Below are positions 9,793 through 59,631 of a stretch of 64,000 nucleotides of DNA, in pieces (position 1 is the first letter of the stretch; each line of letters begins with the position of its first letter). Origin of the DNA: Planctomycetota bacterium (GTDB lineage: Bacteria > Planctomycetota > Phycisphaerae > SM23-33); assembly GCA_022705325.1 (NCBI GenBank), contig JAKJER010000006.1, positions 169,097 through 233,096 of the forward strand, in the 5' to 3' direction. Under the pieces are notes generated by a model that was not told the origin of the DNA, did not search any database, and saw only the letters and a program-made list of their open reading frames with translations. The position numbers were made by a program, and so were the translations under genes.

Positions 9793-9857
9793 GTTTCACC
9801 GCACAGCCGCTTGATCCGGCGACAGCCCGCCGACCGGGCCGCCTGTTGCTCGTCCAC

Positions 9858-9930: not shown

Positions 9931-9985
9931 GTGCCGCCCGCGGGAGGGCGGGGTTCCGTCCCGCGGGCGAGTCTGCACGCTGCTG

Positions 9986-10153
9986 TTATTTCCGCTTGAG
10001 CTTATGCTCCGTGTGGTTGCGCGAGCGGGGGCAGTACTTCTTCAGCGTCAGCTTGGGCGTACCGCCGGCGGTGCGGACCTGGATGCGGTAATTCAGGTCG
10101 CCGCACTCGGTGCATTGCAGCCACACGTATTCGCGAGCCTTGGCCTTGGCCAT
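9986..10153 (-). CDS. rpmG: 50S ribosomal protein L33
   Basis: 55-aa ORF (MAKAKAREYVWLQCTECGDLNYRIQVRTAGGTPKLTLKKYCPRSRNHTEHKLKRK) with the C-x2-C…C-x2-C zinc ribbon. It is too small for the ORF track and occupies the classical tuf-rpmG-secE position. Confidence 0.9.
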   Translation of the reverse strand: MAKAKAREYVWLQCTECGDLNYRIQVRTAGGTPKLTLKKYCPRSRNHTEHKLKRK

Positions 10154-10156
10154 CGT

Positions 10157-11362
<1,206 letters not shown>

Positions 11363-11511
11363 CAGTAACGCTCCTCTTGTACGAGTTCTTGAATACTGCG
11401 TTTGTTTTGGGGCTTCCTGTCTATCGCTGACACCGCGTTGCTGCCCATCCTGCCGGGCCGGCCAAGCGTCGGCCTGTCCGCCATCCGGCTCGGCGGCCCC
11501 TGGGCCACCAG

Positions 11512-11583
<72 letters not shown>

Positions 11584-11933
11584 GCAAAGAAAAACTGACC
11601 ACAAAGCCCCTCCCCATCACACCGGCCCGGGGCCCGGCTGACTGAGGGTGCACTGCGACCTTGGCTTTGAGATAGACCGGCTAGTATACGCCCCAAAATG
11701 ATCCTGTCAAAAGAAATTTCAAGCCCGCCTCCAAGATTTTTGCCCGCAGGAAAGGCTGATTCGCCGCGCCGAGACCGCGTGTTGCGGATCGCCGCCCCTC
11801 GGGGTATCCTGTGCCCGCAGGGAAGCCCCTCGCGGCGCAGGGCAGGGCCGGCGTGTGCCCGGCCCCGCCGGACCACGGGCGCTGGGCAGATCATGAGAGT
11901 CAGGACACTGGGAACCCGAAGGACAGGATCGAC

Positions 11934-15284: not shown

Positions 15285-15312
15285 ACATTGACCGTTGATC
15301 ATTGACCATTGA
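15264..15312. repeat. Heptanucleotide tandem array, 7 x (N)CATTGA, straddling the stop codon of the upstream GH gene
   Basis: ACATTGA CCAGCGA CCATTGA ACATTGA CCGTTGA TCATTGA CCATTGA read directly from the sequence; the TGA stop at 15282-15284 is part of the third unit. Confidence 0.8.
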
Positions 15313-15344: not shown

Positions 15345-15414
15345 CTCGTCCCTCGTCCCTATTCCCTGTTCCCTAGTCCCTGTTCCCTCGTCCCTCATCC
15401 CTATTCGCCGTTCG
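15345..15414. repeat. Heptanucleotide tandem array, 10 x TNNTCCC-type units
   Basis: TCGTCCC TCGTCCC TATTCCC TGTTCCC TAGTCCC TGTTCCC TCGTCCC TCATCCC TATTCGC CGTTCGA, strictly 7-nt periodic, in the spacer between the GH gene and argB. Confidence 0.85.
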
Positions 15415-26275: not shown

Positions 26276-28597
26276 ATGAGAAGGCACATCCTTATCGTGC
26301 TCGTGTCTCTGGAACCCCTATTCGCTTCCGCACTTTCCGCCGCCCCGCCGGCGCAGTTTGCAGCCTGGGGCACGACCTGCGGGCCGCTCAAGCCCGTGCC
26401 CGCGGGCTGGAGACTCATCCAACCATCGCCCGCCCCCCCGCCGCCGCCGACCGAGCTCGACCGCAAGCGAGGCTTCCAGATCCTCAGTGACTCCGGATCG
26501 ACCAACGGCGAGCTGCGGCCGATCACCGCGCTTAACCTCTCAGCCGCGGTCGCCGAGTACGAGAGCGCCAGCTTCGTCCTCCACGCACTGCGGCCACTGG
26601 AGGGCGTGACGCTGCGGATCGTCGAACCGCCGGGCCCGCCAGGAGGGCCGGGCGTCGAGAAGACGGACCCGGCGTCGGCTGGCTGGCCGCTCTCGCCTGC
26701 GAACGTCGACATCCGCGTCGCCCGCGCCATACCCTTCCCGCTGGACGCCAAGGCCAAGACGTACCGCAAGGAAGACTGGGTGCTGGAGAAACTTCCGACG
26801 CTGACCCTCGCCGCCGGCGAGCGGGTGCGAGTCTGGCTGACCTTGCGGGCGGACGAGGTGGCGGAGCACCGCGGCAGATTGGAGGTCGCGGCCAACGACG
26901 CCGCGACGAGTCTGGAGGTGATCCTCCGCATCCTGCCGTTTTCCTTGCCCCCGCCGGCTGTCGAGTTCGCGATGTACTACCCGCGCCCGCCGGCCGACGA
27001 CGCCCAACTCGCCCGCGAGTTGATCGACATGCGCGAGCACGGCATGAACTCGATCCTGCCCGCGATTGAGGCGGTGATCAAGACACGCGACCGGAAGTTC
27101 AGCGCCGATGACATGCGGGCGACCCGCGAGCATGCCGAGCGGATGCTGCGGGCCGTGCGCGAGCACCTGGGGCCGCCGCGCTTTCCGCCCCTGGCGGCGG
27201 CCGGGCACCAGATCGCCTACTACTGGAACCAGCGGACCAACTGGTTCGAGTATTGGCCGCACACGCCGCAGATCGAGGCCGACCTGTTGGCTGCCTGCCG
27301 GCTGCTGGACGAGTTGGCCCGCGACCGCGGGGCCGCACGCACGCGGATCTACCTGGCCGACGAAGCCGCCGCTCACAACCTGCTCGACCAGGCTGCGCGG
27401 AGCTACGCCCTGGTCAAGCAGCGCCTGCCCGAGATGGAGACGTGGACCACGATCGGGGGCGGGCTGGCCATGGGCGTCGACGAGTTGGGGCCGCTGGACA
27501 AGTGTGTGGATTTCTTCGCGACCAACCGCTTCACGCCGCAGGTCGCCCGGCGGTTGGTAGGCCGTGGCAAGGCGTTCGGGGTGTATAACGGGGCGGGCCA
27601 CGCCCCCGAGCAGGCCCGCTTCTTCTTCGGCTTTTACGGGTGGAAGACGGCGGCAGCCCAGGTCTCGCAGTGGTGCTACCACTTCGGCGACTCGCCCTTC
27701 GCCGGCAACGGCCTGCGCAAGGAGGATGAGGGCTTCGTCTACCGCGCCGCCGACGGCCCTGTGCCAACGTTGATGTGGGAGGCTGTCCGCGAGGGCGTCG
27801 ACGACTTCCGCTACATGCAACTCCTCGCCCAATTCGTAGTCGCCGCCACGCTGCACGGCGGCGCCGCACCCCAGGCCGTCCATGACGCCCAGGCATGGTT
27901 GCGGGCGACGCTCGCAACGATCGACTGGAACGTCCAGCCACTTCGGTCCGAGGACCGCTCCGCCCCGCCGACCATGGCGCGCATGAACCAGTGGCGCCGC
28001 GAGGCGGTCGACCACATCCTCAAGCTCTCGCCGCAGGGCAAGCCTGCGCCCCTGCCGGAACTCGTCCGCTCGCCCTTCGACCACCCCTGGGCGTCGGCCG
28101 CCCAGCCGGTCAAGCTCGGCGAGGAACTCCTGCCCCAGGTGGGCTTCGAGACCGGCCTGGAACCTTGGCGCGTCGAGGCGTGGAACGGCAAGAGCAGTCA
28201 CCGCCTGGATGACCGCCAGCCGCACGCGGGCAAGCAGTCGGTCCGCATCGACATCCCTGCCGGCCAGCCCAGCACGGCCGTCACCGTCCTGGTCTTGCCG
28301 GGCTACGGTCCCAAGCCCTTCACCCGCACGCTGGCCGGCGGGAGCGGATACGAGCTTTCCGCCTGGGTCAATGCGCCCGCGAGACTCCCGCCGCAGCTCC
28401 GCGTTGCCCTCCCGGACGGCGCCACCGCAAAGACCCAGTCCGGTCAGGACGAGCCCGGCCCGGACGGTTGGCAGCGTCTGTGGCTGCGCGTCTGGCCCAA
28501 GGAGGACGCCAAGCCCAAGTACCTCGCCCTTTGGGTCCAGGGGCCGGGAACGGTGTGGGCGGACGACGTCAGCCTCCGGACGATCATTGACCATTGA
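26276..28597 (+). CDS. Secreted hypothetical glycoside-hydrolase-like protein (DUF4091/GH123-like?) with a C-terminal CBM4/9-like domain
   Basis: Signal peptide MRRHILIVLVSLEPLFASALSA. The central region (…IYLADEAAAH…) looks like a TIM barrel. The C-terminus (…WNGKSSHRLDD…YELSAWVNAP…VWADDVSL) resembles a carbohydrate-binding module. It ends …IIDH* inside a CATTGA heptamer array. Confidence 0.4.
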   Translation: MRRHILIVLVSLEPLFASALSAAPPAQFAAWGTTCGPLKPVPAGWRLIQPSPAPPPPPTELDRKRGFQILSDSGSTNGELRPITALNLSAAVAEYESASFVLHALRPLEGVTLRIVEPPGPPGGPGVEKTDPASAGWPLSPANVDIRVARAIPFPLDAKAKTYRKEDWVLEKLPTLTLAAGERVRVWLTLRADEVAEHRGRLEVAANDAATSLEVILRILPFSLPPPAVEFAMYYPRPPADDAQLARELIDMREHGMNSILPAIEAVIKTRDRKFSADDMRATREHAERMLRAVREHLGPPRFPPLAAAGHQIAYYWNQRTNWFEYWPHTPQIEADLLAACRLLDELARDRGAARTRIYLADEAAAHNLLDQAARSYALVKQRLPEMETWTTIGGGLAMGVDELGPLDKCVDFFATNRFTPQVARRLVGRGKAFGVYNGAGHAPEQARFFFGFYGWKTAAAQVSQWCYHFGDSPFAGNGLRKEDEGFVYRAADGPVPTLMWEAVREGVDDFRYMQLLAQFVVAATLHGGAAPQAVHDAQAWLRATLATIDWNVQPLRSEDRSAPPTMARMNQWRREAVDHILKLSPQGKPAPLPELVRSPFDHPWASAAQPVKLGEELLPQVGFETGLEPWRVEAWNGKSSHRLDDRQPHAGKQSVRIDIPAGQPSTAVTVLVLPGYGPKPFTRTLAGGSGYELSAWVNAPARLPPQLRVALPDGATAKTQSGQDEPGPDGWQRLWLRVWPKEDAKPKYLALWVQGPGTVWADDVSLRTIIDH

Positions 28598-28618
28598 CTA
28601 TTGGCCATTGAACGTTCC
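28584..28618. repeat. Heptanucleotide array (TCATTGA CCATTGA CTATTGG CCATTGA ACGTTCC) overlapping the stop codon of the upstream gene
   Basis: Direct reading; the TGA stop (28595-28597) is embedded in the second unit. Confidence 0.7.
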
Positions 28619-29894: not shown

Positions 29895-31538
29895 ATGACG
29901 CCTGTTCGCTTCTCAGGGCTGGGGTATTTTCGTTTCGTGCTCGTGTGCGCCTGCCTGCCGGCGTTGGCGGCCGCCCTGCGGCCGGCCCGGGCGGCGGACT
30001 GGCCCCAGTGGGGCGGCGGCAATGCGCGAAACGCCTGCTCGGGCGAGAAGAACCTGCCCGAGTCGTTCGAGCCGGGCGACAAGGACCCCAAGAGCGGCGA
30101 GATCCGCGCCGACACCACCCGCAACGTCAAGTGGTCCGCCCGCCTGGGGGGCGGGTGCTACGGCAACACCACCGTCGCCAACGGGCGCGTCTTCGCCGGC
30201 ACCGACGACCAGACGCTTCGCGAGGACGAGCGCTTCGGCCGGCCCAACACCGCCGGCATGGTCAAGTGCTTCGACGAGAAGACGGGCAAGCTGCTGTGGC
30301 AGTTGCCCATCGCCCCGATCAAGACCCCCAAGGAATGGCACTACGGCTTCCAGAAGCTCGGGGTCTGCTCCTCCCCCACCGTCGACGGCGACCGCGTCTA
30401 CATCGTCTCCCACACCAACGACGTGCTCTGTCTGGACGTCCGCGGCCAGGCCAACGGCAACGACGGGCCCTTCACCGACGAGGCCAAGCTCATGGTCAAG
30501 GCCGACCAGAAGCCGGTTGAGCTCCAGCCCACCGACGGCGACGTGATCTGGCGCTTCAGCGTCAACGAGGAGCTGAAGGTCATCCCCCACGACGTGGCGA
30601 GCTGCTCGGTGGTCGTCCATGGCGACTTCGTCTACCTCTCTACGTCCAACGGGGTCAACCACGCCCACGACAAGCCTCTGTCGCCCGACGCGCCGGCGTT
30701 CATCGCGCTGAACAAGCACACGGGCAAGCTGGCGGCCGTCGAGGACGAGGGGATCAGCAAGCGGATGTTCCACACGCAGTGGTCCTCGCCCTGCCTGGCG
30801 ACGGTGGGCGGGCGGACGCTGGTGGTGGTCGGCGCGACCGACGGCTTCTGCTACGCCTTCGAGCCGCTGGACAAGATGCCCGACGCGCCCGCCAAGCTCA
30901 AGAAGGTCTGGCAGTACGACTGCAACCCCCCCGAGTACCGCCTCCGCGACGGCAAGCGCATCAACTACCTCGACGGCGACAAGCGCAAGAAGACCAGCCC
31001 CAACAAGAACGACGGCACCTACCTGGGCCCCAGCGAGGTCATCGCCACGCCCGCCTTCTCCAACGGGCGCGTCTACGTGGCCATCGGGCAGGACCCCCTC
31101 CACGGCCGGGGAAGGGGCCTGCTCCACTGCATCGACGCCTCCAAGACCGGCGACATCACCAAGACCGGCTGCGTGTGGACCTACGACGGCCTGGACCGCA
31201 CCATCGCCAACGCCGTCGTCGCCGGCGGACTGGTCTACATCCCCGACATCGCCGGAAGACTCCACTGCGTCGACGCCGACACGGGCAAACCGCACTGGGT
31301 GCACGAGATGAAGGCCGAGACCTGGGGCAGCCCCATGGTCGCAGACGGCAAGGTCTACCAGGGCACGCAGAAGGCGCTGCATGTGCTCGCCGCGGGCAAG
31401 GAGGCCAAGGAACTGGCCCGCATCAATCTCGGCTCGCCCATCTACAGCACCCCCATCGCGGCCAACGGCACGCTCTATTTCGCTTCGCAGAAGTACCTGT
31501 GGGCGGTGGCGAAGCAGCCGGTAGCCTCCAGCCGGTAG
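29895..31538 (+). CDS. Secreted PQQ-like beta-propeller repeat protein
   Basis: Signal peptide, then DWPQWGGGNARN… and repeated …G.VY.G..DG.L.A.D..TGK..W… blades. It ends PVASSR* within a GTAGCCT heptamer array. Confidence 0.6.
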   Translation: MTPVRFSGLGYFRFVLVCACLPALAAALRPARAADWPQWGGGNARNACSGEKNLPESFEPGDKDPKSGEIRADTTRNVKWSARLGGGCYGNTTVANGRVFAGTDDQTLREDERFGRPNTAGMVKCFDEKTGKLLWQLPIAPIKTPKEWHYGFQKLGVCSSPTVDGDRVYIVSHTNDVLCLDVRGQANGNDGPFTDEAKLMVKADQKPVELQPTDGDVIWRFSVNEELKVIPHDVASCSVVVHGDFVYLSTSNGVNHAHDKPLSPDAPAFIALNKHTGKLAAVEDEGISKRMFHTQWSSPCLATVGGRTLVVVGATDGFCYAFEPLDKMPDAPAKLKKVWQYDCNPPEYRLRDGKRINYLDGDKRKKTSPNKNDGTYLGPSEVIATPAFSNGRVYVAIGQDPLHGRGRGLLHCIDASKTGDITKTGCVWTYDGLDRTIANAVVAGGLVYIPDIAGRLHCVDADTGKPHWVHEMKAETWGSPMVADGKVYQGTQKALHVLAAGKEAKELARINLGSPIYSTPIAANGTLYFASQKYLWAVAKQPVASSR

Positions 31539-31717
31539 CCTGTGGTCTGTAGCCTGCCGGCAGGCATAAGGTCGGTGGGGTCGCAGGAAGGGCGCAACCC
31601 TTGCCAGCCGCTCAATCCCTTTCTCCGCCGCCATGAAGGCGGTGGGATCAAACAACGAGGCGATTCTCGGACAACCCTTCGGCTACAGGCTACTGACTAC
31701 AGGCTACTGGCTACCGG
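31521..31717. repeat. About 200-bp element with inverted heptamer-array arms (5 x GTAGCCT-type at 31521-31555; 5 x GGCTACN at 31681-31717) around a core carrying the CCTGCCGGCAGG palindrome (31553-31564); MITE-like/REP-like
   Basis: The left arm CCGGTAGCCTCCAGCCGGTAGCCTGTGGTCTGTAGCC is approximately the reverse complement of the right arm GGCTACAGGCTACTGACTACAGGCTACTGGCTACCGG. Both arms are 7-nt periodic. Confidence 0.6.
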
Positions 31718-34662: not shown

Positions 34663-34749
34663 ACCTCTCCGCCCGCCAGGTGATTGGTGATTGCGCCCCG
34701 GCGCGGACGGCTTGCCTGCCAGCCGGGAGGCGGGTATCATGCTGCGACT

Positions 34750-41157: not shown

Positions 41158-44100
41158 TCACGGACGGCCCGGCACGACGACCAGTCGGGCGGCCTTCGGC
41201 GCCTGGGGCAGGATCACGACGGCGTTCTTGCCCGCCCGGAGCTGGGCGGTCACGTTCACGCGCGCGGGCAGGCCGATGCATCCGCCGGCGAACTGCCCGT
41301 TGACCCGCACGGCGGCGGCCGTATCGGGCAACTCGTCCATCTCCAGGTAGACGCGGGCGGTCTTGAGGTCCACCTCGGCGGGCAACTCGACCGTGCCGAC
41401 GAACGGGTCGCTGACAGCGGGGCTGCGCGTGAGCCGCCGGGCGCCGCCGCCCTTGCCCTCGAAGTCGCCCCACGGCCCGCCGCCGTACTTGGCCAGGACC
41501 TTGGCAGCCGTCCAGGAGGAGTCGTCGAACTCCGGCGCGGTCCAGCCGGGCACTTCCTTGTCGCACGACTTCCACGACGCGTCGGTGCAAACGACAAGCG
41601 GCTGGCCACGCTCGAACTCGACGCGGATGACGGCGATCATCCCGCAGGGGTTGGCCGTCTGCGAGTCGAAGTTCTCGCCCCGCACAGCCAGCACGTTGGG
41701 CCCGGCCTTCAGGAGCCCCGTCAGGTCGACCTGCTGCACGTTTCGCCAGCCGGCGTTGAGTTCGTCGTCGGTCTTGCCCGCCTTCTTGCCGTTCACGTGC
41801 AGCACGGCCAGGTTGTCGCAGGTGATGGCGGCGGTGGCGGACTTGACGGGCCTGCCCTCGGGCAGGTCCAGCCGCCCGCGGAAGTAGCGGACCGCGGCCT
41901 TGTCCTCGCCCGACTTGTGCCAGATCCACGAGCCCGACTTGACGGAAAGCCGCCGGCCCCCGGAGGCCGGGGCTTGCTCGGGCGGGCCGGACGGCACGAT
42001 CATGGACTCGGGCGTGGGCTGGCGGACCACCTCGATGGGCGGGCGGGCCGCCTGGAGCTGCGCGGGCAGGCGCGCGGGCAGAGGACGGGCCTGCTCCCGG
42101 AAGACGATCAGCACGCTCTCGTTGGCCTCCAGCGTGAGCTCCAGCTCGACCGCGTCGCCCTTGCGCTCGAAGGGCACGGAGGTGATCTCATTCCGCATGG
42201 CGTCCCAGATCTCGGGCGTGCCGGCCGCGGTGACGCGGAAACGGAAACTCCGGGCCGGACCCTCGTGGTTCTGGTTGCAGACCAGGAACACGTCGCGCCC
42301 GCTCTTGACACGGTGGAGGACGTGCAGCCAGTTGTTGGTCTCGCCCTGGAGCACCTCCAGGGTGGGGTGAAGGGCGGCGTCGCCGGTCAGGGCGGCGGCG
42401 AAGTCGGCGGGCGCGGGCTTCTCGGCCAGCAAGTAGGCCCGCCCGCCGGCCGGGCTGGTCTTGCAGGCCTTCGTGCCGACCTGCGGAGTCTCGCCCCAGA
42501 CGGCTGCGCGAAGGGCGGCGATGTCGGCGGCGGTCTTGCCAACGGTCGCCGAACGGGTCGGCAGCTCGCCGCAGGCGATGACGATCCCGCCGGCGTCGAA
42601 GAACGCCTTCAGGCGGGCCAGCACCTCGTGCGGGATGACCTCCACGCCGGGCAACACCACGACCCTGTATCGCTCCTGGTGGAGCCTGACGGCCTTGTCC
42701 GCAATGGTGCATGTGTCACTGGCAAAAGCTTCCATGGGGAGCCAGTCGCTGTCGAAGAGGACGTCCTGGAGGCTGGAGGTGATGTCCTCGGGCGTGGTCA
42801 TCCGGCCCACGCGTTTGAGGTTGCCCGAGAAGAGGATCGCGACCGGACACACGTGCCGCCCGCCGCTCAGCAGCAGCGCCAGCCGGCTGGTGTAGTCCGT
42901 CCAGGCGCGATGGAGCGGGAAGCGAGGCTCGAACCCGCTGTTGTAGAAGTACGGCGGATAGTCCCTGTCGTACGGGGCCTTGGGGTTGAACGAATGCTGG
43001 ATGAGGAAGTTCACGCCGCGCACCTGCATCTGGTCGGTCAGCCACTTCATCTGGGAGTAGGTCAGCTCCTGGTTGTAGCCGCCGAAGATCTCGCACATGG
43101 TGATGTCGTCGGCCTTGCCGAAGGCGTGCGTGATCGAGCTGCCCAGCTTGGGCGTCTGGTAGATGTCGCGCGGGCGCTGGCCGGGGTACATCTGGCGGCA
43201 GACCAGGTCGATCCCGCCCATGTCGCTGTACTTCTCGAGGCGCATCATGTCGCCCGCGCAGAACTGCGGGTGCAGGTACAGGTAGCCGTGCTCCATGAAG
43301 TGGCCCATCGACTTGACCTTGTGCTCCTGGCACCAGCGGCTCATCGTGCCGTACATCGTCCGCCCCCACGCCTCGGCGAACGCATCGACGTACTGGAACT
43401 TCGCGGCCGCGTCGTCCTCGCCCGCCAGCTTGAACTTGTGGGCCACGTAGGCCTTCTTCCAATCGACCTTCCATTCGGCCAGCACCTTGTTCAGCTCGGT
43501 GCCCCAGTCGCCGCGGGTCTCGGGCTCGTCGTAGAAGAAGCCCGGAATAGTCTTGCCGAAGTCGTCCTTGAAACGGTCCCAGTGGGGCTGATAGACGGTC
43601 TGGATGAAGTAGTCCACGCAGTCCTGGCTGGCCCCGTCGATGGAGGGCTTGTTGCCCTGCCCCAGGCCCGGGCCCTGCTTGTGGGTGAACTTGATCACCT
43701 TCCACGCGCCCGCCGGCGCCTGCCAGCGGAGCGCGCCGTCCCGGATGTGTCCGGCCAGGTCCACCAGGCTCTCGCCGTCGATCGCCCCGCCGTCGACCAC
43801 CTTGCCCGCCACCGCCGCGACGTACCGCTCGCCGACGAAGCCGTCGGCCTCGTACGCCTTGGGCCCCTCGACGTCCACCGCCTCGGCCACCAGCACCTTG
43901 GTGGCGTATTGTGCGGGCACCAACCCGCCGATCATCTGGCTGGGCCACCATTTCTCGTCGAAGATCCACATCTCCATGTTGTTCTTCCTGGCGGCCTCCA
44001 GGCAGATGCCCAGATCGCGGTACCAGCCCTCGCCCAGCCAGTCGCGGTGAGGGCGGCTTTCGGCGGTGAAGCTGCCGTTGCCCGCCTCGGCCGTCTTGGC

Positions 44101-44295
44101 GATGTATTCCTCCAGGCGGTCCTTGGTCTCCTCTCCGTGGAGCCAGAACAGCGGCCCGGTCAGCCGCCTGGCCTCCTGGGGCAGCTCGCGGAAGAGCTGC
44201 TCCATGCGGGCCATGTCGCCCTGGGGAAGCTGCTGGGCGAAGGCGAGCGAAGAAAAGAAGAAGAGGACGAGGGCAAGACAATGCGACGTTTTCAT
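41158..44295 (-). CDS. Large secreted glycoside hydrolase, putatively alpha-L-rhamnosidase-like (GH106-like), with C-terminal galactose-binding-like domains
   Basis: Signal peptide MKTSHCLALVLFFFSSLAFAQQ. It is about 1045 aa with no close family motif I can name with certainty. The rhamnosidase suggestion comes from the adjacent RhaT symporter and overall architecture. Confidence 0.45.
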   Translation of the reverse strand: MKTSHCLALVLFFFSSLAFAQQLPQGDMARMEQLFRELPQEARRLTGPLFWLHGEETKDRLEEYIAKTAEAGNGSFTAESRPHRDWLGEGWYRDLGICLEAARKNNMEMWIFDEKWWPSQMIGGLVPAQYATKVLVAEAVDVEGPKAYEADGFVGERYVAAVAGKVVDGGAIDGESLVDLAGHIRDGALRWQAPAGAWKVIKFTHKQGPGLGQGNKPSIDGASQDCVDYFIQTVYQPHWDRFKDDFGKTIPGFFYDEPETRGDWGTELNKVLAEWKVDWKKAYVAHKFKLAGEDDAAAKFQYVDAFAEAWGRTMYGTMSRWCQEHKVKSMGHFMEHGYLYLHPQFCAGDMMRLEKYSDMGGIDLVCRQMYPGQRPRDIYQTPKLGSSITHAFGKADDITMCEIFGGYNQELTYSQMKWLTDQMQVRGVNFLIQHSFNPKAPYDRDYPPYFYNSGFEPRFPLHRAWTDYTSRLALLLSGGRHVCPVAILFSGNLKRVGRMTTPEDITSSLQDVLFDSDWLPMEAFASDTCTIADKAVRLHQERYRVVVLPGVEVIPHEVLARLKAFFDAGGIVIACGELPTRSATVGKTAADIAALRAAVWGETPQVGTKACKTSPAGGRAYLLAEKPAPADFAAALTGDAALHPTLEVLQGETNNWLHVLHRVKSGRDVFLVCNQNHEGPARSFRFRVTAAGTPEIWDAMRNEITSVPFERKGDAVELELTLEANESVLIVFREQARPLPARLPAQLQAARPPIEVVRQPTPESMIVPSGPPEQAPASGGRRLSVKSGSWIWHKSGEDKAAVRYFRGRLDLPEGRPVKSATAAITCDNLAVLHVNGKKAGKTDDELNAGWRNVQQVDLTGLLKAGPNVLAVRGENFDSQTANPCGMIAVIRVEFERGQPLVVCTDASWKSCDKEVPGWTAPEFDDSSWTAAKVLAKYGGGPWGDFEGKGGGARRLTRSPAVSDPFVGTVELPAEVDLKTARVYLEMDELPDTAAAVRVNGQFAGGCIGLPARVNVTAQLRAGKNAVVILPQAPKAARLVVVPGRP

Positions 44296-44316
44296 AGTCT
44301 CTCCTTGAAGCAATTC

Positions 44317-44418
44317 TCGATTGTCGATTTGCGATTGTCGATTGACCCACCCGTCTTGGCAGGCCCTGCTCAAATCGACAATCGAAAACCTGCCGGCAGG
44401 CAGGTCGACAATCGTCAA
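44317..44418. repeat. REP-like element: heptamer array 4 x TCGATTG-type, inverted copies (AATCGAC AATCGAA … TCGACAA TCGTCAA) and the 23-nt core AACCTGCCGGCAGGCAGGTCGAC (44387-44409)
   Basis: CGATTGTCGATTTG (44316-44329) is the exact reverse complement of CAAATCGACAATCG (44371-44384). The core is identical to 58063-58085. It sits between the URO-D-family stop and the GH106-like start. Confidence 0.75.
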
Positions 44419-45581
44419 TACCATCCGTACTCGTACGCCGCGTCGTACATCGCGACGATGTTCTCAGGCGGCACGCCGGCCTGGATGTTGTGGACGTTGT
44501 TGAACACGTACCCGCCGCCGGGCTTGAACAGCTCGATGTTGCGCCGGACGTGCTCGCGGACCTGGTCCGGCGTGGCCCTCGGCAGGACGCGCTGCGCGTC
44601 GATCGCCCCGCCCCAGAACGTCAGGCGCTCGCCGAACTCCCGCTTGAGCCGCCCCGGGTCCATGTCGGCGGCGCTGATCTGCACCGGGTTGAGGATGTCG
44701 ACGCCGTTGTCGACCAGGTCGCCGATGTACTCGGTGCAGTTGCCGCACGTGTGGTACCAGATCTTCGCCTTCGTCCGCGAGCGGATGTACTGCACGAGTC
44801 GTTTGTGGCGCGGCTTCACGAGCTGACGGTAGAGCGCCGGGCGGAACAGGGGCCCCTGCTGCCCGGCCAGGTCGTCGCCGATCATGATCACGTCCACCAC
44901 GTCGCCGACCTCGTCCAGGAACACCCGGAACCAGTCCATCCAGAACTTGAGCGTCTGGTCCAGCACCGCCTGGCAGAACTCCGGCTCGGTCATCAGGTCC
45001 ACGTACCACTGTTCCAGGCCGCGCATGTACCAGCAGACCTCGTACACCACGCCGCAGATGCCGCTGACCACGGCGTAGGGCGTGTGGTTCTTCAGTTCCA
45101 GGGCCCGCTCGCGCAGGCCCACGAACCGCCCCGGGTCGTCGCCCCTGGGGAACGGGTAGGCCTTCACGTCCTCGATGGTCGCGTTGGCCAGCGGGTGGTG
45201 CGTGATGTCCATGTACAGCCCGTCCTCGGCCGGCATGGACCAGCGGACGCCGAACTCGTCGACCAGGTCGAACCACCGCCTCCCATCGTGCTCGCCCTCG
45301 ACGATGCCGCCCTTCCAGTCGCCCGCCGCCCCGGCCGCGATGTACCGCGTGTCCACGCGGAATCGCTGGAGGAGTTCCTCGCTGGGCTTGGCGAGTTGCT
45401 GGACGGCGTCCATGATCTCGACCGGGCCGTTCATCCCCAGGTGCCGGATCAGCTCGCGGTAGGCGTCGCGATGGATGCCTGTCTGGTTGCCGCCCAGGTC
45501 GATGGGCACGCGGTCCGGCTGCTTGTGGTCCAGGGCGGTCAGGACGCGCTGGCGGGGTGTCATGGTCTCGGTGCGGCTCAT
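44415..45581 (-). CDS. Uroporphyrinogen-decarboxylase (URO-D)/MtaA-CmuA-family protein
   Basis: 388 aa; …TPRQRVLTALDHKQPDRVPIDLGG… plus a TIM-barrel-length body typical of PF01208 members. GGAG RBS. Its start overlaps the rhaT stop by 4 nt. Confidence 0.6.
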   Translation of the reverse strand: MSRTETMTPRQRVLTALDHKQPDRVPIDLGGNQTGIHRDAYRELIRHLGMNGPVEIMDAVQQLAKPSEELLQRFRVDTRYIAAGAAGDWKGGIVEGEHDGRRWFDLVDEFGVRWSMPAEDGLYMDITHHPLANATIEDVKAYPFPRGDDPGRFVGLRERALELKNHTPYAVVSGICGVVYEVCWYMRGLEQWYVDLMTEPEFCQAVLDQTLKFWMDWFRVFLDEVGDVVDVIMIGDDLAGQQGPLFRPALYRQLVKPRHKRLVQYIRSRTKAKIWYHTCGNCTEYIGDLVDNGVDILNPVQISAADMDPGRLKREFGERLTFWGGAIDAQRVLPRATPDQVREHVRRNIELFKPGGGYVFNNVHNIQAGVPPENIVAMYDAAYEYGWY

Positions 45582-46714
45582 TGGATCTCCTTTGCGGTCT
45601 GTGTCTGGGCAGCCTTGGCCGCCTCCGCATCCACCGTCCGGCGGTCCGTGCCGTAGCCGATCACGGCCATCGACAGCACCAGCAGGGCCAGGCCAACGGC
45701 GACAAGCTTCTTCGTGCGTCTGCTCGTGCCATGCCATTCCTTCAGCCCCAGGCCCCAGAACGTGCTGAAGATGATGATGCTGCCCATGTGCAGCGACCAG
45801 CTCGAAAAGCCGTACTTGCCCATCTTGGTCGCGCCCATGCCGTAGAAGAAGAACTGGAGATACCACATCGTGCCGGCCAGGGCGCAGAGGGCGTAGTTGA
45901 CCACAACCGAAGCGAGCGTGCCGGCCGGCTCACCCGCGGAGGCCGGCAGGCAGCCCCGCCCGACATATTGGCCCCACGACTTGTTTCGGATGTTGAGGAT
46001 GACGCACCAGATGAAGTTGGTCGTGAACCCGCCGGCCATGATGACCACCCAGACGGGTTGGTTCTTCCACAGATCCGGGGTGTTGTTCGCGACCGCCAGC
46101 TTCGCGATGTCCTCGCCGGCGCTGAACCCGTACGACATCGAGGCGCTCATCACGCCGGCGAAGACGGCGACCAGGAGGCCCTTGACCAGATTGAACTCGC
46201 GGACCGACTCCTTCTTCTTCTCCGGGCTCAGTTCCCGTTCCTTGCTGATGCCCGCCAGCCCGCTGCCCGCGATCCCGACCAGGCACACCAGGACTCCCGC
46301 CAGTTCGATCTGGCCGCCCAGGCTGGTCGCGATCTGCCCGAACTCGCCCTTGAAGATGGGCGGCACGAGCGTGCCGAAGAGCGCGCATAATCCCAGGGCG
46401 ACCGCATAGCCCAGCGCGATGCCCAGGTAGCGCATGGTCAGCCCGAACGTCAGCCCGCCGATCCCCCACAGCACGCCGAAGAAGTAGGTCCAGAACAATG
46501 TCTTGGGCGGGGTCTGCGCCAGGACCTCCAGACCCTTGGGCGCCAGCAGGAGCATCAGCACCCAGGGGGCGACGATCCAGGCGAAGAAGCCGCCTGCCAG
46601 CCAGTAGGTCTCCCACGACCATCTGCGGACGCGCTTGTAGGGGATGTAGAAGCTCGCCGAAGCAAGTCCACCGATCGCGTGCAGCATGACGCCCAGGGCC
46701 GGGTTGGCCTCCAT
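45578..46714 (-). CDS. rhaT: L-rhamnose-proton symporter
   Basis: Strong similarity to the E. coli RhaT pattern: …GGLASASFYIPYKRVRRWSWETYWLAGGFFAWIVAPW…GLTMRYLG…MWYLQFFFYGMGA…LKEW…; 10 TM helices. Confidence 0.85.
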   Translation of the reverse strand: MEANPALGVMLHAIGGLASASFYIPYKRVRRWSWETYWLAGGFFAWIVAPWVLMLLLAPKGLEVLAQTPPKTLFWTYFFGVLWGIGGLTFGLTMRYLGIALGYAVALGLCALFGTLVPPIFKGEFGQIATSLGGQIELAGVLVCLVGIAGSGLAGISKERELSPEKKKESVREFNLVKGLLVAVFAGVMSASMSYGFSAGEDIAKLAVANNTPDLWKNQPVWVVIMAGGFTTNFIWCVILNIRNKSWGQYVGRGCLPASAGEPAGTLASVVVNYALCALAGTMWYLQFFFYGMGATKMGKYGFSSWSLHMGSIIIFSTFWGLGLKEWHGTSRRTKKLVAVGLALLVLSMAVIGYGTDRRTVDAEAAKAAQTQTAKEIQ

Positions 46715-56030: not shown

Positions 56031-56105
56031 TAGTGGTTCGTGCACAGTGGATGGCCAAGCGCGTCCTGTTCTCTTCCCTATCCACTATCCACTGTCCACT
56101 ATTCC
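56029..56105. repeat. Inverted heptamer arrays (AATAGTGG…CACAGTGG vs TATCCAC TATCCAC TGTCCAC TATT) between the permease gene and nrdJ
   Basis: AATAGTGGTTCGTGCACAGTGGATGG is approximately the reverse complement of CTATCCACTATCCACTGTCCACTATT. Units are 7-nt periodic and contain CACTAT / ATAGTG, which resemble NrdR half-sites. Confidence 0.55.
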
Positions 56106-56140: not shown

Positions 56141-58036
56141 ATGCAGACATTCGAGCCCATTTTGTCCCCCAATGCCCTGCGGGCGCTGGAGGCGCGGTAT
56201 TTGCGGAAGGACATCTCCGGGCGGCTCCTCGAGACGCCGGGCGGAATGTTCCAGCGCGTGGCCCGGGCGGTGGCCGCTGCCGAGCCGGCCTACGGGGCCT
56301 CGCCGGCTGAAGTCGAGCAAACCGAGCGCGACTTCTACGAGATGATGGCCCGCACGGAGTTCCTGCCCAACAGCCCCACGCTGATGAACGCGGGACGCCG
56401 GCTCGGAATGCTCAGCGCGTGCTTCGTGCTGCCTATCGACGACTCGATCGACGCCATCTTCGAGTCGGTCAAGCACACCGCGCTGATCCAGAAGGCCGGC
56501 GGGGGCACGGGCTTCTCCTTCGACCGCCTCCGCCCCACGGGCGATTACGTGGCCTCCTCGGGCGGCACGACCAGCGGGCCCATCAGCTTCTGGCGGGTCT
56601 TTTGCGAGGCCACCCGCGCCATCCAGCAGGGGGCGTTCCGGCGCGGGGCCAACATGGGCATGATGTCCGTCGACCGCCCCGACATTCTCAAATTCATCTC
56701 GGCCAAGGAAAGGCCGGGCGAGTTCGAGAACTTCAACATCTCCGTCAAGGTCACCGACGCGTTCATGTGCGATCTGCGAAGCGACGGCGACCGTCCGCAC
56801 GTGGTCACCAACCCTCACACGGGCGAGCGGTATACCCTCCCGGCCGGGCTGGACGTGGCCACCTACTCGATCCACGACCTGGCGCCCCACGACGGCCGCC
56901 CCGCCCCGCCCTACGCCGTCACCAGCCGCCAGGTCTGGGACCGCATCGTCCGGGGCGCGTGGGCCACCGGCGAGCCCGGGCTGTGCTTCATCGACCGCGT
57001 CAACGCCGACAACCCCACCCCCCAAGTCGGGCGGATCGAGGCCACCAACCCCTGCGGCGAGCAGCCCCTGCTGGATTACGAGGCCTGCAACCTCGGCTCG
57101 GTGGACGTCTCCAAGTTCGTCCGCGACGGACGGCTCGACGAGGCCGCCTTCTCCCGCACCGTCCGTCTGGGCGTCCGGTTCCTCGACGACGTCATCGACG
57201 TCAACAACTACGTCATCCCAGCCGTGACCGACATCTGCCGCCGCAACCGCAAGATCGGGCTGGGCGTCATGGGTCTGGCCGACGCCTTGATGGAACTGGA
57301 GATCCCCTACGACAGCGAGGAAGGCCTGGCCTTCGGGCGGCGAGTGGCGGAGTTGTTCACGCGCGAGGCCTTCGCCGCCGACGAGGAACTGGCCCGCCGG
57401 CGCGGGTGCTTTGCCAACTGGCCCGGCAGCGTGTGGGATGTCCGCCATCACCGCCCCATGCGCAACGCAGCCGTCACCACCGTGGCCCCCACCGGCACGC
57501 TGAGCCTCATCGCCGGCTGCTCCGGCGGGATCGAGCCCGTCTACGCCCTGGCCTTCTACCGCCACGTGCTGGGCGGGCAGGAGATGCTCGACCTCTGCGG
57601 GCCCTTCCTGCGCTACGCCCGACGGCACGGCATCTGGAATGACGATCTGGCCCGCCGCCTGGCCGGGCGGACAAGCCTGGGCTGCATCGAGGGCCTCGAT
57701 GCCCGCACCCGCGAGATCTTCGTCACCGCCCACGACGTGGCCCCCGCCTGGCACGTTCGAATGCAGGCCGTCTTCCAGGAGCACGTCGACGGGGCCATCT
57801 CCAAGACCATCAACCTCCCCGCCGGCGCCACCCTCAAGGACGTGGAAGACGTCTACCAGCTCGCCTTCGACCTCCGCTGCAAAGGCGTGACCGTCTACCG
57901 CGACGGCTGCCGGACGGGCCAGCCCATGACCACCGAGAAGCTCGACGCCCTCTGCCCACGCTGCCAGGCGCTGCTCGAAGAGATCGACGGCGCCTGCTCG
58001 CGCTGCCCCTCGTGCGGGGCGCCCCTGTGTTCCTGA
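56141..58036 (+). CDS. nrdJ: Adenosylcobalamin-dependent (class II) ribonucleotide reductase with a C-terminal zinc ribbon
   Basis: Active-site …ATNPCGEQPL…, …SNCNLGS-like CNLGSVD…, and a C-terminal CPRCQ…CSRCPSCG. 631 aa. Confidence 0.85.
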   Translation: MQTFEPILSPNALRALEARYLRKDISGRLLETPGGMFQRVARAVAAAEPAYGASPAEVEQTERDFYEMMARTEFLPNSPTLMNAGRRLGMLSACFVLPIDDSIDAIFESVKHTALIQKAGGGTGFSFDRLRPTGDYVASSGGTTSGPISFWRVFCEATRAIQQGAFRRGANMGMMSVDRPDILKFISAKERPGEFENFNISVKVTDAFMCDLRSDGDRPHVVTNPHTGERYTLPAGLDVATYSIHDLAPHDGRPAPPYAVTSRQVWDRIVRGAWATGEPGLCFIDRVNADNPTPQVGRIEATNPCGEQPLLDYEACNLGSVDVSKFVRDGRLDEAAFSRTVRLGVRFLDDVIDVNNYVIPAVTDICRRNRKIGLGVMGLADALMELEIPYDSEEGLAFGRRVAELFTREAFAADEELARRRGCFANWPGSVWDVRHHRPMRNAAVTTVAPTGTLSLIAGCSGGIEPVYALAFYRHVLGGQEMLDLCGPFLRYARRHGIWNDDLARRLAGRTSLGCIEGLDARTREIFVTAHDVAPAWHVRMQAVFQEHVDGAISKTINLPAGATLKDVEDVYQLAFDLRCKGVTVYRDGCRTGQPMTTEKLDALCPRCQALLEEIDGACSRCPSCGAPLCS

Positions 58037-58085
58037 TTGCGGATTGCGAATTGCGGACTGCGAACCTGCCGGCAGGCAGGTCGAC
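58035..58085. repeat. Second copy of the REP-like element: 4 x GATTGCG heptamers plus the identical 23-nt core AACCTGCCGGCAGGCAGGTCGAC (58063-58085)
   Basis: GATTGCG GATTGCG AATTGCG GACTGCG starts at the nrdJ stop (TGA 58034-58036). The core is 23/23 identical to 44387-44409. Confidence 0.75.
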
Positions 58086-58144
58086 TATCCCGCGATTGAT
58101 CTTCCTGCCAGGTGAGACTATCCTCTTGGGCCAGGAGAACGCCC

Positions 58145-59596: not shown

Positions 59597-59631
59597 TCGT
59601 CGTTCGTTGTTCGCTATTCGTTGTTTGTCAC
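59597..59631. repeat. Heptamer array TCGTCGT TCGTTGT TCGCTAT TCGTTGT TTGTCAC starting immediately after the stop codon
   Basis: Direct reading; it begins at the nucleotide after TGA (59594-59596). Confidence 0.7.

Follow-up and report, generated by a model that had tools for sequence, protein, structure and literature searches.

A repeated intergenic 23-mer as a probable shortened copy of a putatively mobile 20-nt palindrome

Two intergenic spacers of the window, i.e., of the whole 64-kb stretch of DNA that was analysed, share the 23-mer AACCTGCCGGCAGGCAGGTCGAC. With a probability of roughly 0.62, this feature derives from the perfect 20-nt palindrome (CCTG)2CCGG(CAGG)2 ("PAL"), of which it is a 16-nt copy with one shortened arm, and PAL would be a non-autonomous mobile insertion for which a GIY-YIG nuclease is the best candidate enzyme. 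The best reading of the sequence comparisons is that PAL represents a non-autonomous mobile palindrome of extremely small size, comparable to REPs or SDRs. As a mobile DNA element it would be unusually small, and no description of it was found in the literature searched. The initial annotation of the 23-mer as a REP-like element was thus only partly supported: the repeat family and its insertion were retained, while the unit, the class and the role were not.

The repeat unit and its sites in the window

The 23-mer was found twice on the plus strand, at 44387-44409 and 58063-58085. The exact match at all 23 positions, which had been noted before, was borne out: it did not occur in any of 100 dinucleotide shuffles, and the chance expectation is none. 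Further copies with up to three mismatches were not present in the window. From the comparisons described below, the mobile unit is taken to be the inner 16 nt CCTGCCGGCAGGCAGG ("PAL16") and not the whole 23-mer, as had been assumed. PAL16 is PAL with one arm shortened, i.e., (CCTG)1CCGG(CAGG)2, and the seven remaining identical bases are, at both copies, one heptamer (AA^TCGAC) of the host tandem arrays. The two insertions share both the heptamer family and the position within it, and this accounts for the identity over 23 nt. The features of the three sites discussed are:

31553-31564, unstranded: probable PAL12 (CCTGCCGGCAGG), closing a GGTAGCC-type heptamer array, with a stop codon 15 nt before it; assigned by context
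41158-44295, minus strand: GH106 (PF17132) gene, downstream of the copy-1 spacer; the ATG is the reverse complement of 44293-44295
44311-44344, minus strand: 3′ arm of the array hairpin, CAATCGA CAATCGC AAATCGA CAATCGA GAATTG (TRF period 7)
44345-44370, minus strand: 26-nt loop of the array hairpin, sequence not kept in the relative (alignment, RNA folds)
44371-44421, minus strand: 5′ arm of the array hairpin in mRNA sense, from the URO-D stop, TATTGAC GATTGTC GA[PAL16]TTTTC GATTGTC GATTTG (alignment of relatives, RNA folds)
44389-44404, unstranded: PAL16 copy 1, CCTGCCGGCAGGCAGG, exact match; the minus (gene-sense) strand reads CCTGCCTGCCGGCAGG; inside one heptamer (sense GA^TTTTC)
44415-45581, minus strand: URO-D-family (PF01208) gene; the stop is the reverse complement of 44415-44417 and lies inside the first heptamer
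58037-58064, plus strand: heptamer array TTGCGGA TTGCGAA TTGCGGA CTGCGAA, directly after the stop (58034-58036) of a class II ribonucleotide reductase-like gene
58065-58080, unstranded: PAL16 copy 2, 16 nt, with the plus-strand orientation and the AA^TCGAC flanks of copy 1
58096-58124, plus strand: promoter-like TTGATC-17-TATCCT for a PF04734-family gene (ATG 58145), conserved in the relatives L282-L284, below the threshold of the consensus scan

Copy 1 had been described as lying between a URO-D stop and a GH106 start, and it was clarified that both genes are encoded on the minus strand. Therefore, relative to transcription, copy 1 of the 23-mer is antisense and copy 2 is sense. The heptamers TCGATTG TCGATTT GCGATTG TCGATTG reported for this spacer are real (44317-44344, TRF period 7), as are the GTCGAC palindrome at 44404-44409 and the inverted copy CAAATCGACAATCG at 44371-44384, while the partner of the latter, CGATTGTCGATTTG, is located at 44318-44331, two bases to the right of the previously given 44316-44329. 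The URO-D-family protein is 100% identical to P0001 (Planctomycetes bacterium ADurb.Bin126). The GH106 gene has the ribosome binding site GGAG (reverse complement of 44301-44304) 5 nt upstream of its ATG, and directly upstream of both the 3′ arm holds a promoter-like TCGACA-17-GAGAAT. The copy-1 spacer was identical in five independent assemblies, among them a 98% strain. In an 89% relative (protein identity; L161) the spacer is devoid of PAL and its heptamers are uninterrupted, TGA GATTTTC GATTTTC GATTGTC GATTTTC GATTTG, compared with GATTGTC GA[16 nt]TTTTC GATTGTC GATTTG in the window. Deletion of exactly 16 nt from the window sequence brings back the heptamer register, and a target duplication is absent. 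The array hairpin of copy 1 was predicted to fold with -51.4 kcal/mol (z -4.7), and it is equally stable without PAL (-47.5 kcal/mol). In the models, PAL is locally an added 6-bp GC hairpin, which at copy 1 forms a side branch on a pre-existing intercistronic array hairpin of about 28 bp. Its local function is probably minor, and any putative effect on the stability or processing of mRNA 3′-ends would be secondary.

The 93% relatives L282 and L283 retain copy 2 between the same flanks, and its array has four units in the window versus eight in a 93% relative. Copy 2 is missing in a 79% relative (protein identity; L284), which stems from the same sample as L161; in the window, PAL16 takes the place of the loop and the inverted array of the relative. 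The promoter-like TTGATC-17-TATCCT is situated outside of PAL and borders the variable region of the spacer. The view that a dispersed palindromic repeat family is present, and not a locus-specific signal, was upheld. Both copies are also insertion-like: each of the two sites lacks the element in a relative, and removal restores the surrounding sequence.

It had also been pointed out that the 12-nt palindrome CCTGCCGGCAGG occurs again at 31553-31564, followed by CA. This is correct, but the match is not significant on its own, as at least three matches were obtained in 11 of 100 shuffles. From its context, this site is a probable member of the PAL family, so that the window holds two clear copies and a probable one, all of them 12–29 nt 3′ of a stop codon. 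An inverted array is found nearby (31681-31716), and no syntenic relative was available for this site, since the nearest homologue of the upstream gene (70% identity) was not syntenic. A further PAL-like match (17/20) at 34715-34734 overlaps a promoter-like TTGCCT-17-TATCAT and is probably due to chance. An ECF-sigma promoter (AAC...GTC) was considered and rejected, because the spacing is too short and the orientation to the genes is opposite at the two copies. An Rfam scan of the window at gathering thresholds retrieved three tRNAs and nothing else, and the E-value mode applied to the spacer gave a chance match to a miRNA only.

Distribution of PAL and properties of its insertion sites

With exact scans PAL was found at no fewer than 120 genome loci, at least 120 metagenome loci and 35 viral loci, and the PAL core is present in at least 275 public loci beyond the window. 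The identical sequence occurs in unrelated bacterial phyla and on phage contigs; hosts include Patescibacteria, Bacteroidota, Nitrospirota, Proteobacteria and Planctomycetota, and the GC content of the contigs ranges from 0.29 to 0.71. Among the copies counted, the form with two repeats in both arms is dominant (156 copies, versus 31 with 1+2 or 2+1). Neither 72,556 isolate plasmids nor 50,697 phage records contained an exact PAL, and nearly all evidence therefore stems from short-read metagenome assemblies. Partial BLAST matches in these records were attributed to chance, namely a terminator of S. meliloti pSymB (sharing the CCTGCCGGCAGG core), a Klebsiella GGDEF coding sequence and ribonucleotide reductase genes of Gordonia phages. 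In the literature searched, no match to the PAL sequence or parts of it was found in a bacterial context.

The properties of the insertion sites were determined with an unbiased set of 159 PAL copies; the first genome set had been TCG-biased. In pairs of filled and empty sites the difference was exactly the element. The palindrome was not continued by its flanks in the 159 copies, and flanking direct repeats were no commoner than in controls. A hint from the biased set that PAL might be the apex of a longer hairpin was unsupported in the unbiased set. At the junctions only a weak purine^pyrimidine bias and no fixed target sequence was observed. Period-7 arrays surround 12–15% of the PAL sites versus about 1% of control positions (odds ratio 14.6, p 1e-13), an enrichment that arises in part because arrays and PAL are both intergenic and of which about 3-fold is left after a rough correction. 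The arrays are not piled-up 7-bp target duplications of PAL, since insertions into tRNA sequence and into arrays occur without duplication. PAL was also found inserted precisely inside other repeats. A hairpin-junction context was enriched 2-fold only. The sites are mostly non-coding, and at low-GC loci 60% of them are located outside of ORFs of at least 100 amino acids, compared with 13% of all positions.

tRNA-like sequences are a further enriched context. They contain PAL at 23 of 305 sites, compared with 0.95% of the controls. An intact tRNA resulted from the removal of PAL at one of 315 sites, and the other cases inspected are half-gene duplicates beside an intact gene, each differing by the exact 20-nt insertion. 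The position of PAL within the halves varies (D-stem, D-loop, anticodon stem, variable loop, T-loop).

A neighbouring nuclease gene and the competing explanations

Among the unrelated loci listed, a single protein family is recurrent near PAL, a small UPF0213 GIY-YIG nuclease. The proteins belong to PF01541 (Pfam E-values 1e-15 to 1e-16), have the invariant residues Y, Y, G, R, H and E in an alignment, and match the UPF0213 structures 1ywl and 1zg2 (E 1e-9). They are bare catalytic domains of 80–100 amino acids devoid of a DNA-binding extension. PAL is present within 65 nt of 10 of 24 GIY-YIG genes versus 2.5 expected, a value reached by 1 of 20000 permutations. In a reciprocal test, extra GIY-YIG loci were retrieved by a search with a single protein and thus picked independently of PAL, and at two of the three the adjacent tRNA sequence contained PAL-like hairpins. 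One of these, CCTGCCTACCGGTAGGCAGG, is a PAL with two changes that is still a perfect palindrome. The order of the architecture is a PAL-bearing tRNA half, the GIY-YIG gene and an intact tRNA. The dead tRNA halves beside GIY-YIG genes carry one or two PALs each within about 40 nt, a density far above that of ordinary intergenic DNA. A connection of UPF0213/YhbQ with palindromes or tRNA genes was not found in the literature searched.

These sequence data suggest that a UPF0213-type nuclease possibly mobilises PAL. In the proposed mechanism, single-stranded PAL would fold into a hairpin, which would be excised and reinserted, or else copied, at places where the DNA is structured or exposed as a single strand. 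Slipped tandem arrays, the loops of hairpins and the cruciforms of tRNA genes would be examples of such places. A structure-specific nuclease would act in trans together with host ligation or repair, and a GIY-YIG (SLX1-like) enzyme would be the best candidate. By analogy, the route might resemble that of REP/RAYT or IS200/IS605 hairpin elements. GIY-YIG enzymes cut DNA, and to our knowledge none is known to join it. It is tempting, but doubtful, to go further and to speculate that a formerly unrecognised mobility system exists, in which the bare UPF0213 (SLX1-like) GIY-YIG protein excises and inserts the 20-nt hairpin, and its gene spreads between phyla as a minimal, tRNA-gene-invading cassette that brings along a complementing tRNA half. 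If this were true, PAL would be the smallest known transposable unit and GIY-YIG proteins a new class of DNA transposition enzymes in prokaryotes.

The strongest competitor, although clearly less probable than the preferred reading, is that PAL is mobile without the GIY-YIG nuclease. The closeness of the two could be indirect if both ended up in tRNA halves made by a cassette; cassettes would leave dead tRNA halves behind, and other machinery, e.g., an HUH enzyme, an RNA intermediate or host repair, would move PAL into tolerated or preferred structured, dispensable DNA. This would fit with the observations that about 96% of the PAL copies are solo, with no GIY-YIG gene within 100 nt, that some GIY-YIG genes of the PAL-adjacent family have no nearby PAL, and that the varying positions in tRNA halves do not reveal a fixed cleavage site. 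The window is also devoid of a GIY-YIG gene, and none of the 24 GIY-YIG hits belonged to planctomycete-like GC-rich loci. A precedent are the hairpin elements of Allomyces mitochondria, which also lack flanking duplications and for which an RNA route has been proposed (PMC2800124). However, the presence of one or two PALs in each dead half beside a GIY-YIG gene suggests action near the gene, and a second protein family recurrent near PAL was not observed.

It is unlikely that copy 2 goes back to ectopic gene conversion, or to recombination, involving two spacers of the same heptamer family, with PAL16 dragged along together with a few flanking bases and no transposition. Both copies do share the truncated 16-nt form, the orientation and the host flanks, the identity reaches 27 nt (AACCTGCCGGCAGGCAGGTCGACAATC) with the 93% relative, and the spacers of the relative hold CAATCGA/TCGATTG-type units at both loci. 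Yet the identity ends within one heptamer on either side, the left arrays are unlike (CAATCG-type versus TTGCGGA), and neither the first insertion nor the several hundred loci in other organisms would be explained.

An ordinary REP/BIME of this species spread by a RAYT is improbable; a REP/BIME-like element was one of the classes suggested initially. PAL is short, GC-rich, palindromic, extragenic and dispersed, classical GTAG-type REPs are found beside some PAL copies in other genomes, and two PAL loci hold RAYT-like genes. However, a GTAG or CGTC head neither abuts the PAL copies of the window nor figures in the most frequent 4-mers flanking 318 half-sites. The same sequence recurs unchanged in different phyla and is thus not lineage-specific, and PAL is a perfect palindrome of 16–20 nt, at or under the 20–40 nt typical of the imperfect REPs. 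The recurrent neighbour is a GIY-YIG and not an HUH gene. The window was searched for a RAYT, as had been recommended, and no RAYT-like ORF was found in it, and at the locus L203 such a gene is interrupted, not flanked, by PAL. The alternative label of a MITE was not confirmed either: with its 16–20 nt PAL has no inverted termini around a body (about 50–500 bp) and no target-site duplication.

Still less probable is a selected locus-specific signal, be it an intrinsic terminator, a stabiliser of mRNA 3′ ends or the operator of a DNA-binding protein, although a terminator or an operon regulatory element had been envisaged. It would agree with the position of the three window copies shortly after stop codons, with the predicted PAL16 RNA hairpin (-10.9 kcal/mol), with the replacement of a long hairpin of the relative at copy 2, and with a weak terminator-type match on the sense strand of copy 1 (5 pairs and TTTCGATTGT). 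However, copies 1 and 2 are oppositely oriented to transcription, and copy 2 gave no match to a terminator-type hairpin with T-run. Copy 1 resides within an operon, on an array hairpin that does not need PAL for its stability, the neighbouring genes are functionally unrelated, and a close relative has the same genes without the element. The same 20-mer is also found in tRNA fragments, phages and genomes with 30% GC. An annotation that makes the 23-mer a regulatory element of the rhamnose/GH106 operon is thus not warranted.

A sequencing, library or assembly artefact of short-read metagenomes is very improbable. In its favour, almost all matches come from MAGs or contigs of metagenomes, an exact PAL is lacking in the collections of isolate plasmids and phages, and the sequence is invariant across very different genomes. 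However, the truncated form is found at the same site in five assemblies and in 98% and 93% strains with different array lengths and is missing at this site in another relative, decayed and compensated variants occur, two isolate genomes carry PAL, the insertion is always clean, internal and in continuous sequence, and we know of no sequencing adapter with the PAL sequence. Isolates with a PAL site are Flagellimonas yonaguniensis 334s03 and Aestuariivivens sediminis S-DT1-15.

Comparison with known systems

Very small mobile repeats are poorly understood. It took 25 years before REPs were linked to RAYTs, and the SDRs of cyanobacteria, for which we know of no established mechanism, are seen as an oddity of the Nostocaceae. 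PAL, which is identical in lineages as distant as Patescibacteria and Planctomycetota and in phages, would be of much wider generality, and its physical link to one small nuclease family offers a concrete and testable handle on the mechanism. There are practical consequences as well: in MAGs, tRNA genes and spacers are split by PAL and related elements, which also create spurious ORFs (LPAGRQ-type peptides) and mark sites of recent genome change.

The small dispersed repeats (SDRs) of the Nostocaceae, which are said to have been described by Elhai et al. in 2008 (Genome Res 18:1484), have reportedly also been found inside heptamer tandem arrays. SDR4-6 form hairpins of 21–27 nt, and the insertion point of SDR5 in HIP1 lies between its bases 3 and 4 (PMC4390886, PMC5861425). 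Judged from these descriptions, both SDRs and PAL are tiny hairpins precisely inserted into other repeats, PAL with 16–20 nt being slightly below the SDR size; neither has a gene of its own, and for both mobility is deduced from presence or absence between relatives. SDR-like repeats are not known outside of the Nostocaceae according to the latter report (PMC5861425), whereas PAL is identical across many phyla and phages. In addition, the palindrome of PAL is perfect and composed of CCTG repeats, and PAL has a candidate protein partner, the GIY-YIG nuclease.

REPs are imperfect, lineage-specific palindromes with a GTAG or CGTC head (PMC3733652). REPs and REPINs share with PAL that they are short GC-rich extragenic palindromes, dispersed in the genome and non-autonomous, with a single-copy gene of nuclease type adjoining repeat copies, and a target duplication of PAL is not evident. 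In contrast, PAL is headless and cross-phylum, and RAYTs are HUH tyrosine enzymes, which also join DNA, while the neighbour of PAL encodes a GIY-YIG nuclease. IS200/IS605 elements resemble the working model for PAL, in that a DNA hairpin would be recognised as a structure, single-stranded or structured DNA would be preferred, and no target duplication arises. They differ by having tnpA and two different subterminal hairpins and by inserting 3′ of a fixed tetra- or pentanucleotide, whereas PAL consists of a single hairpin, encodes nothing and lacks a fixed target.

T4 SegB is a free-standing GIY-YIG homing endonuclease whose gene lies in a tRNA gene region. The PAL-neighbouring genes at other loci, which have the PF01541 domain and signature of the GIY-YIG superfamily, are similarly found in or beside tRNA genes, and a duplicated tRNA half keeps one gene intact, in line with the logic of homing into an essential gene. 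However, the proteins near PAL are bare UPF0213 domains, for which homing is putative and suggested by the architecture, and homing endonucleases are not known to be accompanied by a dispersed 20-nt palindrome.

Several mitochondrial genomes contain GC-rich hairpins and also hold free-standing GIY-YIG ORFs with partial gene duplications. These hairpins include the GC clusters of yeast, the double-hairpin elements of Allomyces and the GC-rich palindromes flanking tRNA genes in Neurospora (cited in PMC2800124 and PMC4478555). Like PAL, they are small GC-rich palindromic insertions in AT-richer genomes that are mobile by comparison; the flanking of tRNA genes in Neurospora and the lack of duplications in Allomyces are further parallels. 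They differ in being organellar, about 30–50 nt or longer and lineage-specific, while PAL is a bacterial and phage sequence of 20 nt.

For the host arrays of PAL no report on heptamer arrays in Planctomycetota was found. Elsewhere, heptanucleotide arrays comprise the STRR of cyanobacteria and the TAACTGA repeats of Beggiatoaceae (PMC4679880). The arrays hosting PAL in the window are likewise intergenic, with period 7 and 2–10 units, and the number of units varies between strains. In contrast to the known arrays, each spacer of the window has its own heptamer. The arrays begin at stop codons, and an inverted array is often found opposite them, so that the pair forms a long hairpin.

The repeated 23-mer and its setting

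The 23-mer noticed in the initial annotation was verified to occur exactly twice in the window, at 44387-44409 and 58063-58085, where none is expected by chance. Its 12-nt core was indeed found a third time, at 31553, but this occurrence is not significant by itself, and one reported coordinate was off by two bases. Beyond the inner 16 nt, the shared bases are a left-hand AA and a right-hand TCGAC, which stem from an AATCGAC-type heptamer present in both spacers. Therefore, the 23-mer is made up of a 16-nt form, with one shorter arm, of a perfect 20-nt palindrome (PAL) and of host heptamer bases, the insertion lying at the same position of the same heptamer in both cases. The identity grew to 27 nt when the 93% relative was compared. 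Relative to the host heptamer both copies point the same way; relative to transcription they are opposed.

The GC content of the window is 68%, and genes were placed by codon-position GC content and by the gene calls of public contigs with identical sequence. Tandem Repeats Finder listed nine period-7 arrays, all of which lie in intergenic spacers of the gene map; none was seen in coding sequence within the window.

Genes and period-7 arrays in the window (arrays from Tandem Repeats Finder unless noted)
15265-15312, array
15345-15402, array (also noted as 15345-15413)
28585-28611, array
31515-31553, array noted in passing, outside the nine
31681-31714, array (also noted as 31681-31716)
34679-34693, array
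41158-44295, minus strand, GH106 gene
44313-44344, array of copy 1 (with inverted array, 44311-44421)
44415-45581, minus strand, URO-D-family gene
45578-46714, minus strand, RhaT gene
56078-56102, array
58035-58062, array of copy 2 (also noted as 58037-58064)
59597-59625, array

The spacers have distinct heptamers (CATTGAC, CCCTCGT, GGCTACA, GGTGATT, CGATTGT, CTATCCA, GATTGCG, TCGTTGT), the arrays mostly start at, inside or a few bases from the upstream stop codon, and several have an inverted partner. Among the long simple repeats of prokaryotes, intergenic heptanucleotide arrays are a known class (PMC4679880, summarising Mrazek 2007). P0001 of Planctomycetes bacterium ADurb.Bin126, an anaerobic-digester MAG, shows 100% identity to the URO-D-family protein. 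Judged by ORF sizes and order alone, positions 1-11700 appear to hold a conserved rpoC/rpoB, L7/L12, L10, L1, L11, NusG, SecE and EF-Tu cluster, with tRNA genes at 9858-9930 and 11512-11583. A sequence at 34715-34734, CCTGCCAGCCGGGAGGCGGG, agrees with PAL in 17 of 20 positions; since it overlaps a promoter-like TTGCCT-17-TATCAT directly 5′ of a start codon, it is probably a chance match, not a decayed copy.

Insertion and distribution of PAL

The copy-1 spacer has 119 nt. Its sense strand reads TGA C GATTGTC GA-CCTGCCTGCCGGCAGG-TTTTC GATTGTC GATTTG, followed by a 26-nt loop, CAATCGA CAATCGC AAATCGA CAATCGA GAATTG, the RBS and ATG. It was identical in five independent assemblies, including a strain with a 98% identical URO-D protein. 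In the relative L161 (89% protein identity) the array at this place is uninterrupted (TGA GATTTTC GATTTTC GATTGTC GATTTTC GATTTG), and taking exactly CCTGCCTGCCGGCAGG out of the window sequence restored the heptamer GA-TTTTC, with nothing duplicated. Copy 2 was kept with unchanged flanks in the relatives L282 and L283 (93% identity), where its array has eight units versus four in the window. The 79% relative L284, from the same sample as L161, has no element there; the place is taken by an array, a 23-nt loop and a CAATCGA array in inverted orientation. A promoter-like TTGAYC-17-TATCCT lies downstream of the copy-2 region in the window and all compared relatives. By comparison of these relatives, the element is a 16-nt insertion, and its precise presence or absence without duplication was demonstrated.

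The copy-1 RNA was predicted to fold into a branched hairpin (-51.4 kcal/mol, z = -4.7). After in silico PAL deletion the value was -47.5 kcal/mol, and the PAL-free spacer of a relative gave -48.0 kcal/mol. Comparing 44311-44421 with L161:3876-3992, and 58037-58064 with L282:545-610 and L284:1706-1800, it was observed that array/inverted-array hairpins of 28-35 bp are kept while the loops diverge, and that the units co-vary on both arms (GATTGTC/GACAATC in the window, GATTTTC/GAAAATC in the relative).

The proposal that the core belongs to a dispersed repeat family was borne out. A genome scan with CCTGCCGGCAGGCAGGTCG, using one genome per species, matched at least 120 loci, and exact CCTGCCTGCCGGCAGGCAGG was present in at least 120 further metagenome loci (GC 0.29-0.71 among the matches listed) and in 35 viral loci, with a maximum of six copies on one 29.5-kb contig. 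The genome matches listed include two isolates and span many Patescibacteria, Bacteroidota, Nitrospirota and Thermodesulfovibrionia, Gamma-, Alpha- and Deltaproteobacteria, Planctomycetota, Elusimicrobia, Anaerolineales and Lentisphaeria; in about nine tenths of them the motif is the 20-nt perfect palindrome CCTGCCTGCCGGCAGGCAGG. Arm lengths step by CCTG: among the matches listed, 156 are 2+2, 31 are 1+2 or 2+1 (the window has 1+2), and a few are 1+1, 2+3 or 3+2. In 318 unbiased half-sites TCG was outside the eight commonest 3-nt flanks, each of which occurred at least 10 times, and therefore the TCG-restricted genome scan probably detected no more than a few percent of the existing copies. 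Neither 72,556 isolate plasmids nor 50,697 phage records contained exact PAL, and it was absent from the open-access papers and bioRxiv preprints searched. All evidence on PAL is comparative and comes nearly entirely from short-read assemblies.

Site statistics were based on 159 unbiased copies, in which neither an extension of the palindrome into the flanks nor a flanking direct repeat was found. Only the first flanking position was biased: A is depleted 3′ and T 5′ of PAL, which points to a purine^pyrimidine preference at the junction. In loci below 50% GC, 60% of the sites lie outside ORFs of at least 100 aa versus 13% of all positions. Period-7 arrays surround 12-15% of the sites versus about 1% of random positions (odds ratio 14.6, p ~1e-13), and other periods showed no enrichment; after a rough correction for the common intergenic location the excess was about three-fold. 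Heptamer arrays, often in inverted pairs, likewise frequently accompany PAL in low-GC genomes from other phyla (L018:3960-4200, reverse strand, L046, L063, L120, L164, L207, L221), for example AATGACA/GTCATTT in a 43% GC gammaproteobacterial MAG. In Patescibacteria (including L013, L031, L047, L051, L074, L075, L081, L099 and others) PAL often lies inside or beside members of a widespread repeat family, GTCATTGCGAG...CTCGCAATGAC, with the relatives GTCATCCTGAGCG and GTCATTCCCGC and PAL-free paralogues on the same contig. Rare copies split genes of other mobile elements:

L203:3540-3680, RAYT/IS200-like gene (..GE^FVVMPNHVHG..)
L174:4100-4230 and L083:130-260, IS91/Y2-like zinc-finger C-termini (CPNCGAN^MRIIAFI)

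tRNA halves and GIY-YIG genes

tRNA-like sequence contained 7.5% of the PAL sites versus 0.95% of control positions, and among the matches listed only 1 of 315 sites gave an otherwise intact tRNA after in silico PAL deletion. The inspected cases are half-gene duplicates 50-300 nt from an intact copy of the same tRNA, from which they differ by an exact 20-nt insertion, sometimes by two. The sole intact case is the tRNA-Met gene of L145:2230-2330, with PAL in the variable loop; in L122 (8560-8660), the second of these two related GC-rich phage contigs, PAL occupies this loop as well, and 13 nt beside it are deleted. At L196:230-400 an insert splits an older tRNA gene at the anticodon loop; the insert carries another allele of this tRNA, whose acceptor and T stems show compensating changes. 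PAL lies in the T-loop of the displaced 3′ half, and no nuclease gene is present at this locus.

Clustering of all ORFs up to 1 kb from PAL gave a single family that recurred across unrelated loci, namely GIY-YIG proteins of 80-100 aa with PF01541, which are structurally closest to the UPF0213 proteins 1ywl and 1zg2 and faintly similar to SLX1. Two architectures recurred: a 5′ tRNA half with PAL, the GIY-YIG gene and the intact tRNA, or, in mirror image, the intact tRNA, the gene and a 3′ half with PAL in the T-loop. With an HMM of the family, 24 genes were detected across roughly 1.96 Mb of loci, the window contributing none. Ten of these genes have a PAL no more than 65 nt away versus 2.5 expected, a count reached in 1 of 20,000 random placements. 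Reciprocally, three further viral GIY-YIG loci were chosen without regard to PAL. One has a tRNA with three PAL variants downstream of the gene, including CCTGCCTACCGGTAGGCAGG, in which both arms are changed and the palindrome is still perfect; such paired changes demonstrate, by comparison, that palindromy is kept. The second has the 5′-half/GIY-YIG/tRNA layout with a related hairpin, CCTGTCTGCTGACAGG, and the third has neither feature. In a Nitrospirales locus an unrelated palindrome, TCTACGACTCGTAGA, occupies PAL's position. Hairpin insertions thus seem to form a larger set, with PAL as its most frequent member.

Other palindromes at PAL positions in tRNA halves
L070:5700-6500, TCTACGACTCGTAGA
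L289:230-400, CCTGTCTGCTGACAGG
L290:1230-1300, CCTGCCTACCGGTAGGCAGG

A minimal cassette was observed in unrelated genomes: the UPF0213-type gene inserted near a tRNA anticodon loop plus a duplicated tRNA half, leaving one intact tRNA gene and a displaced half with palindromic insertions (L018:3300-3960, L035:5650-6400, L100:600-1400, L152:200-1100, L205:600-1350, L211:4150-4960, L234:500-1145, L255:100-860, L260:300-1000, L290:1000-1800). The ORF at L260:590-900 has in-frame TGA codons at expected Gly positions (IYV*LT for IYVGxT), suggesting that its host uses code 25 (Gracilibacteria/Absconditabacteria); such copies escape translation table 11. At L085:1958-3574 PAL (translated LPAGRQ) and a complete GIY-YIG domain are in frame within an HsdS-like type I restriction specificity ORF, between the two target-recognition halves.

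Possible mobility and comparison with known systems

The comparisons established identity of PAL across phyla, a preference for non-coding and structured DNA, and proximity to one nuclease family. Single-stranded PAL would fold into a hairpin (8-bp stem; -13.9 kcal/mol as RNA, -8.0 as DNA), be cut at its base and be joined into nicks where single-stranded DNA is exposed, for example in slipped tandem arrays, in hairpin loops or in tRNA-gene cruciforms. Cutting may be performed by a structure-specific nuclease in trans, and joining by host ligation or repair. The best candidate nuclease is the GIY-YIG enzyme, and a cis-proximity effect would fit, since dead tRNA halves adjoining the gene are full of PAL. 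The main rival explanation is an indirect proximity: the cassette would produce dispensable tRNA halves in which PAL, moved otherwise, survives. In the 64-kb window of this Planctomycete no partner gene for PAL was seen.

In its local setting, PAL contributes a GC hairpin directly downstream of stop codons, and at copy 1 it is possibly an mRNA 3′ stabiliser or weak terminator. The suggested terminator or regulator role is inconsistent across copies and unnecessary for explaining the data. The initially considered MITE fails on size and duplication, and membership in REP/RAYT fails on the GTAG/CGTC head, lineage specificity and the partner gene.

PAL was rated among the very small mobile palindromic repeats; there is a minority chance that it represents, through its link to GIY-YIG genes, a new kind of mobility system. 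REP/RAYT and IS200/IS605 are thought to work as proposed here, by a hairpin that is cut and joined into single-stranded DNA. Organelles contain functional look-alikes, namely mitochondrial GC clusters, Allomyces double-hairpin elements and Neurospora tRNA-flanking palindromes (PMC2800124). The closest bacterial analogue is the small dispersed repeat family of Nostocaceae, which is reportedly without counterpart outside Nostocaceae (PMC5861425, PMC4390886).
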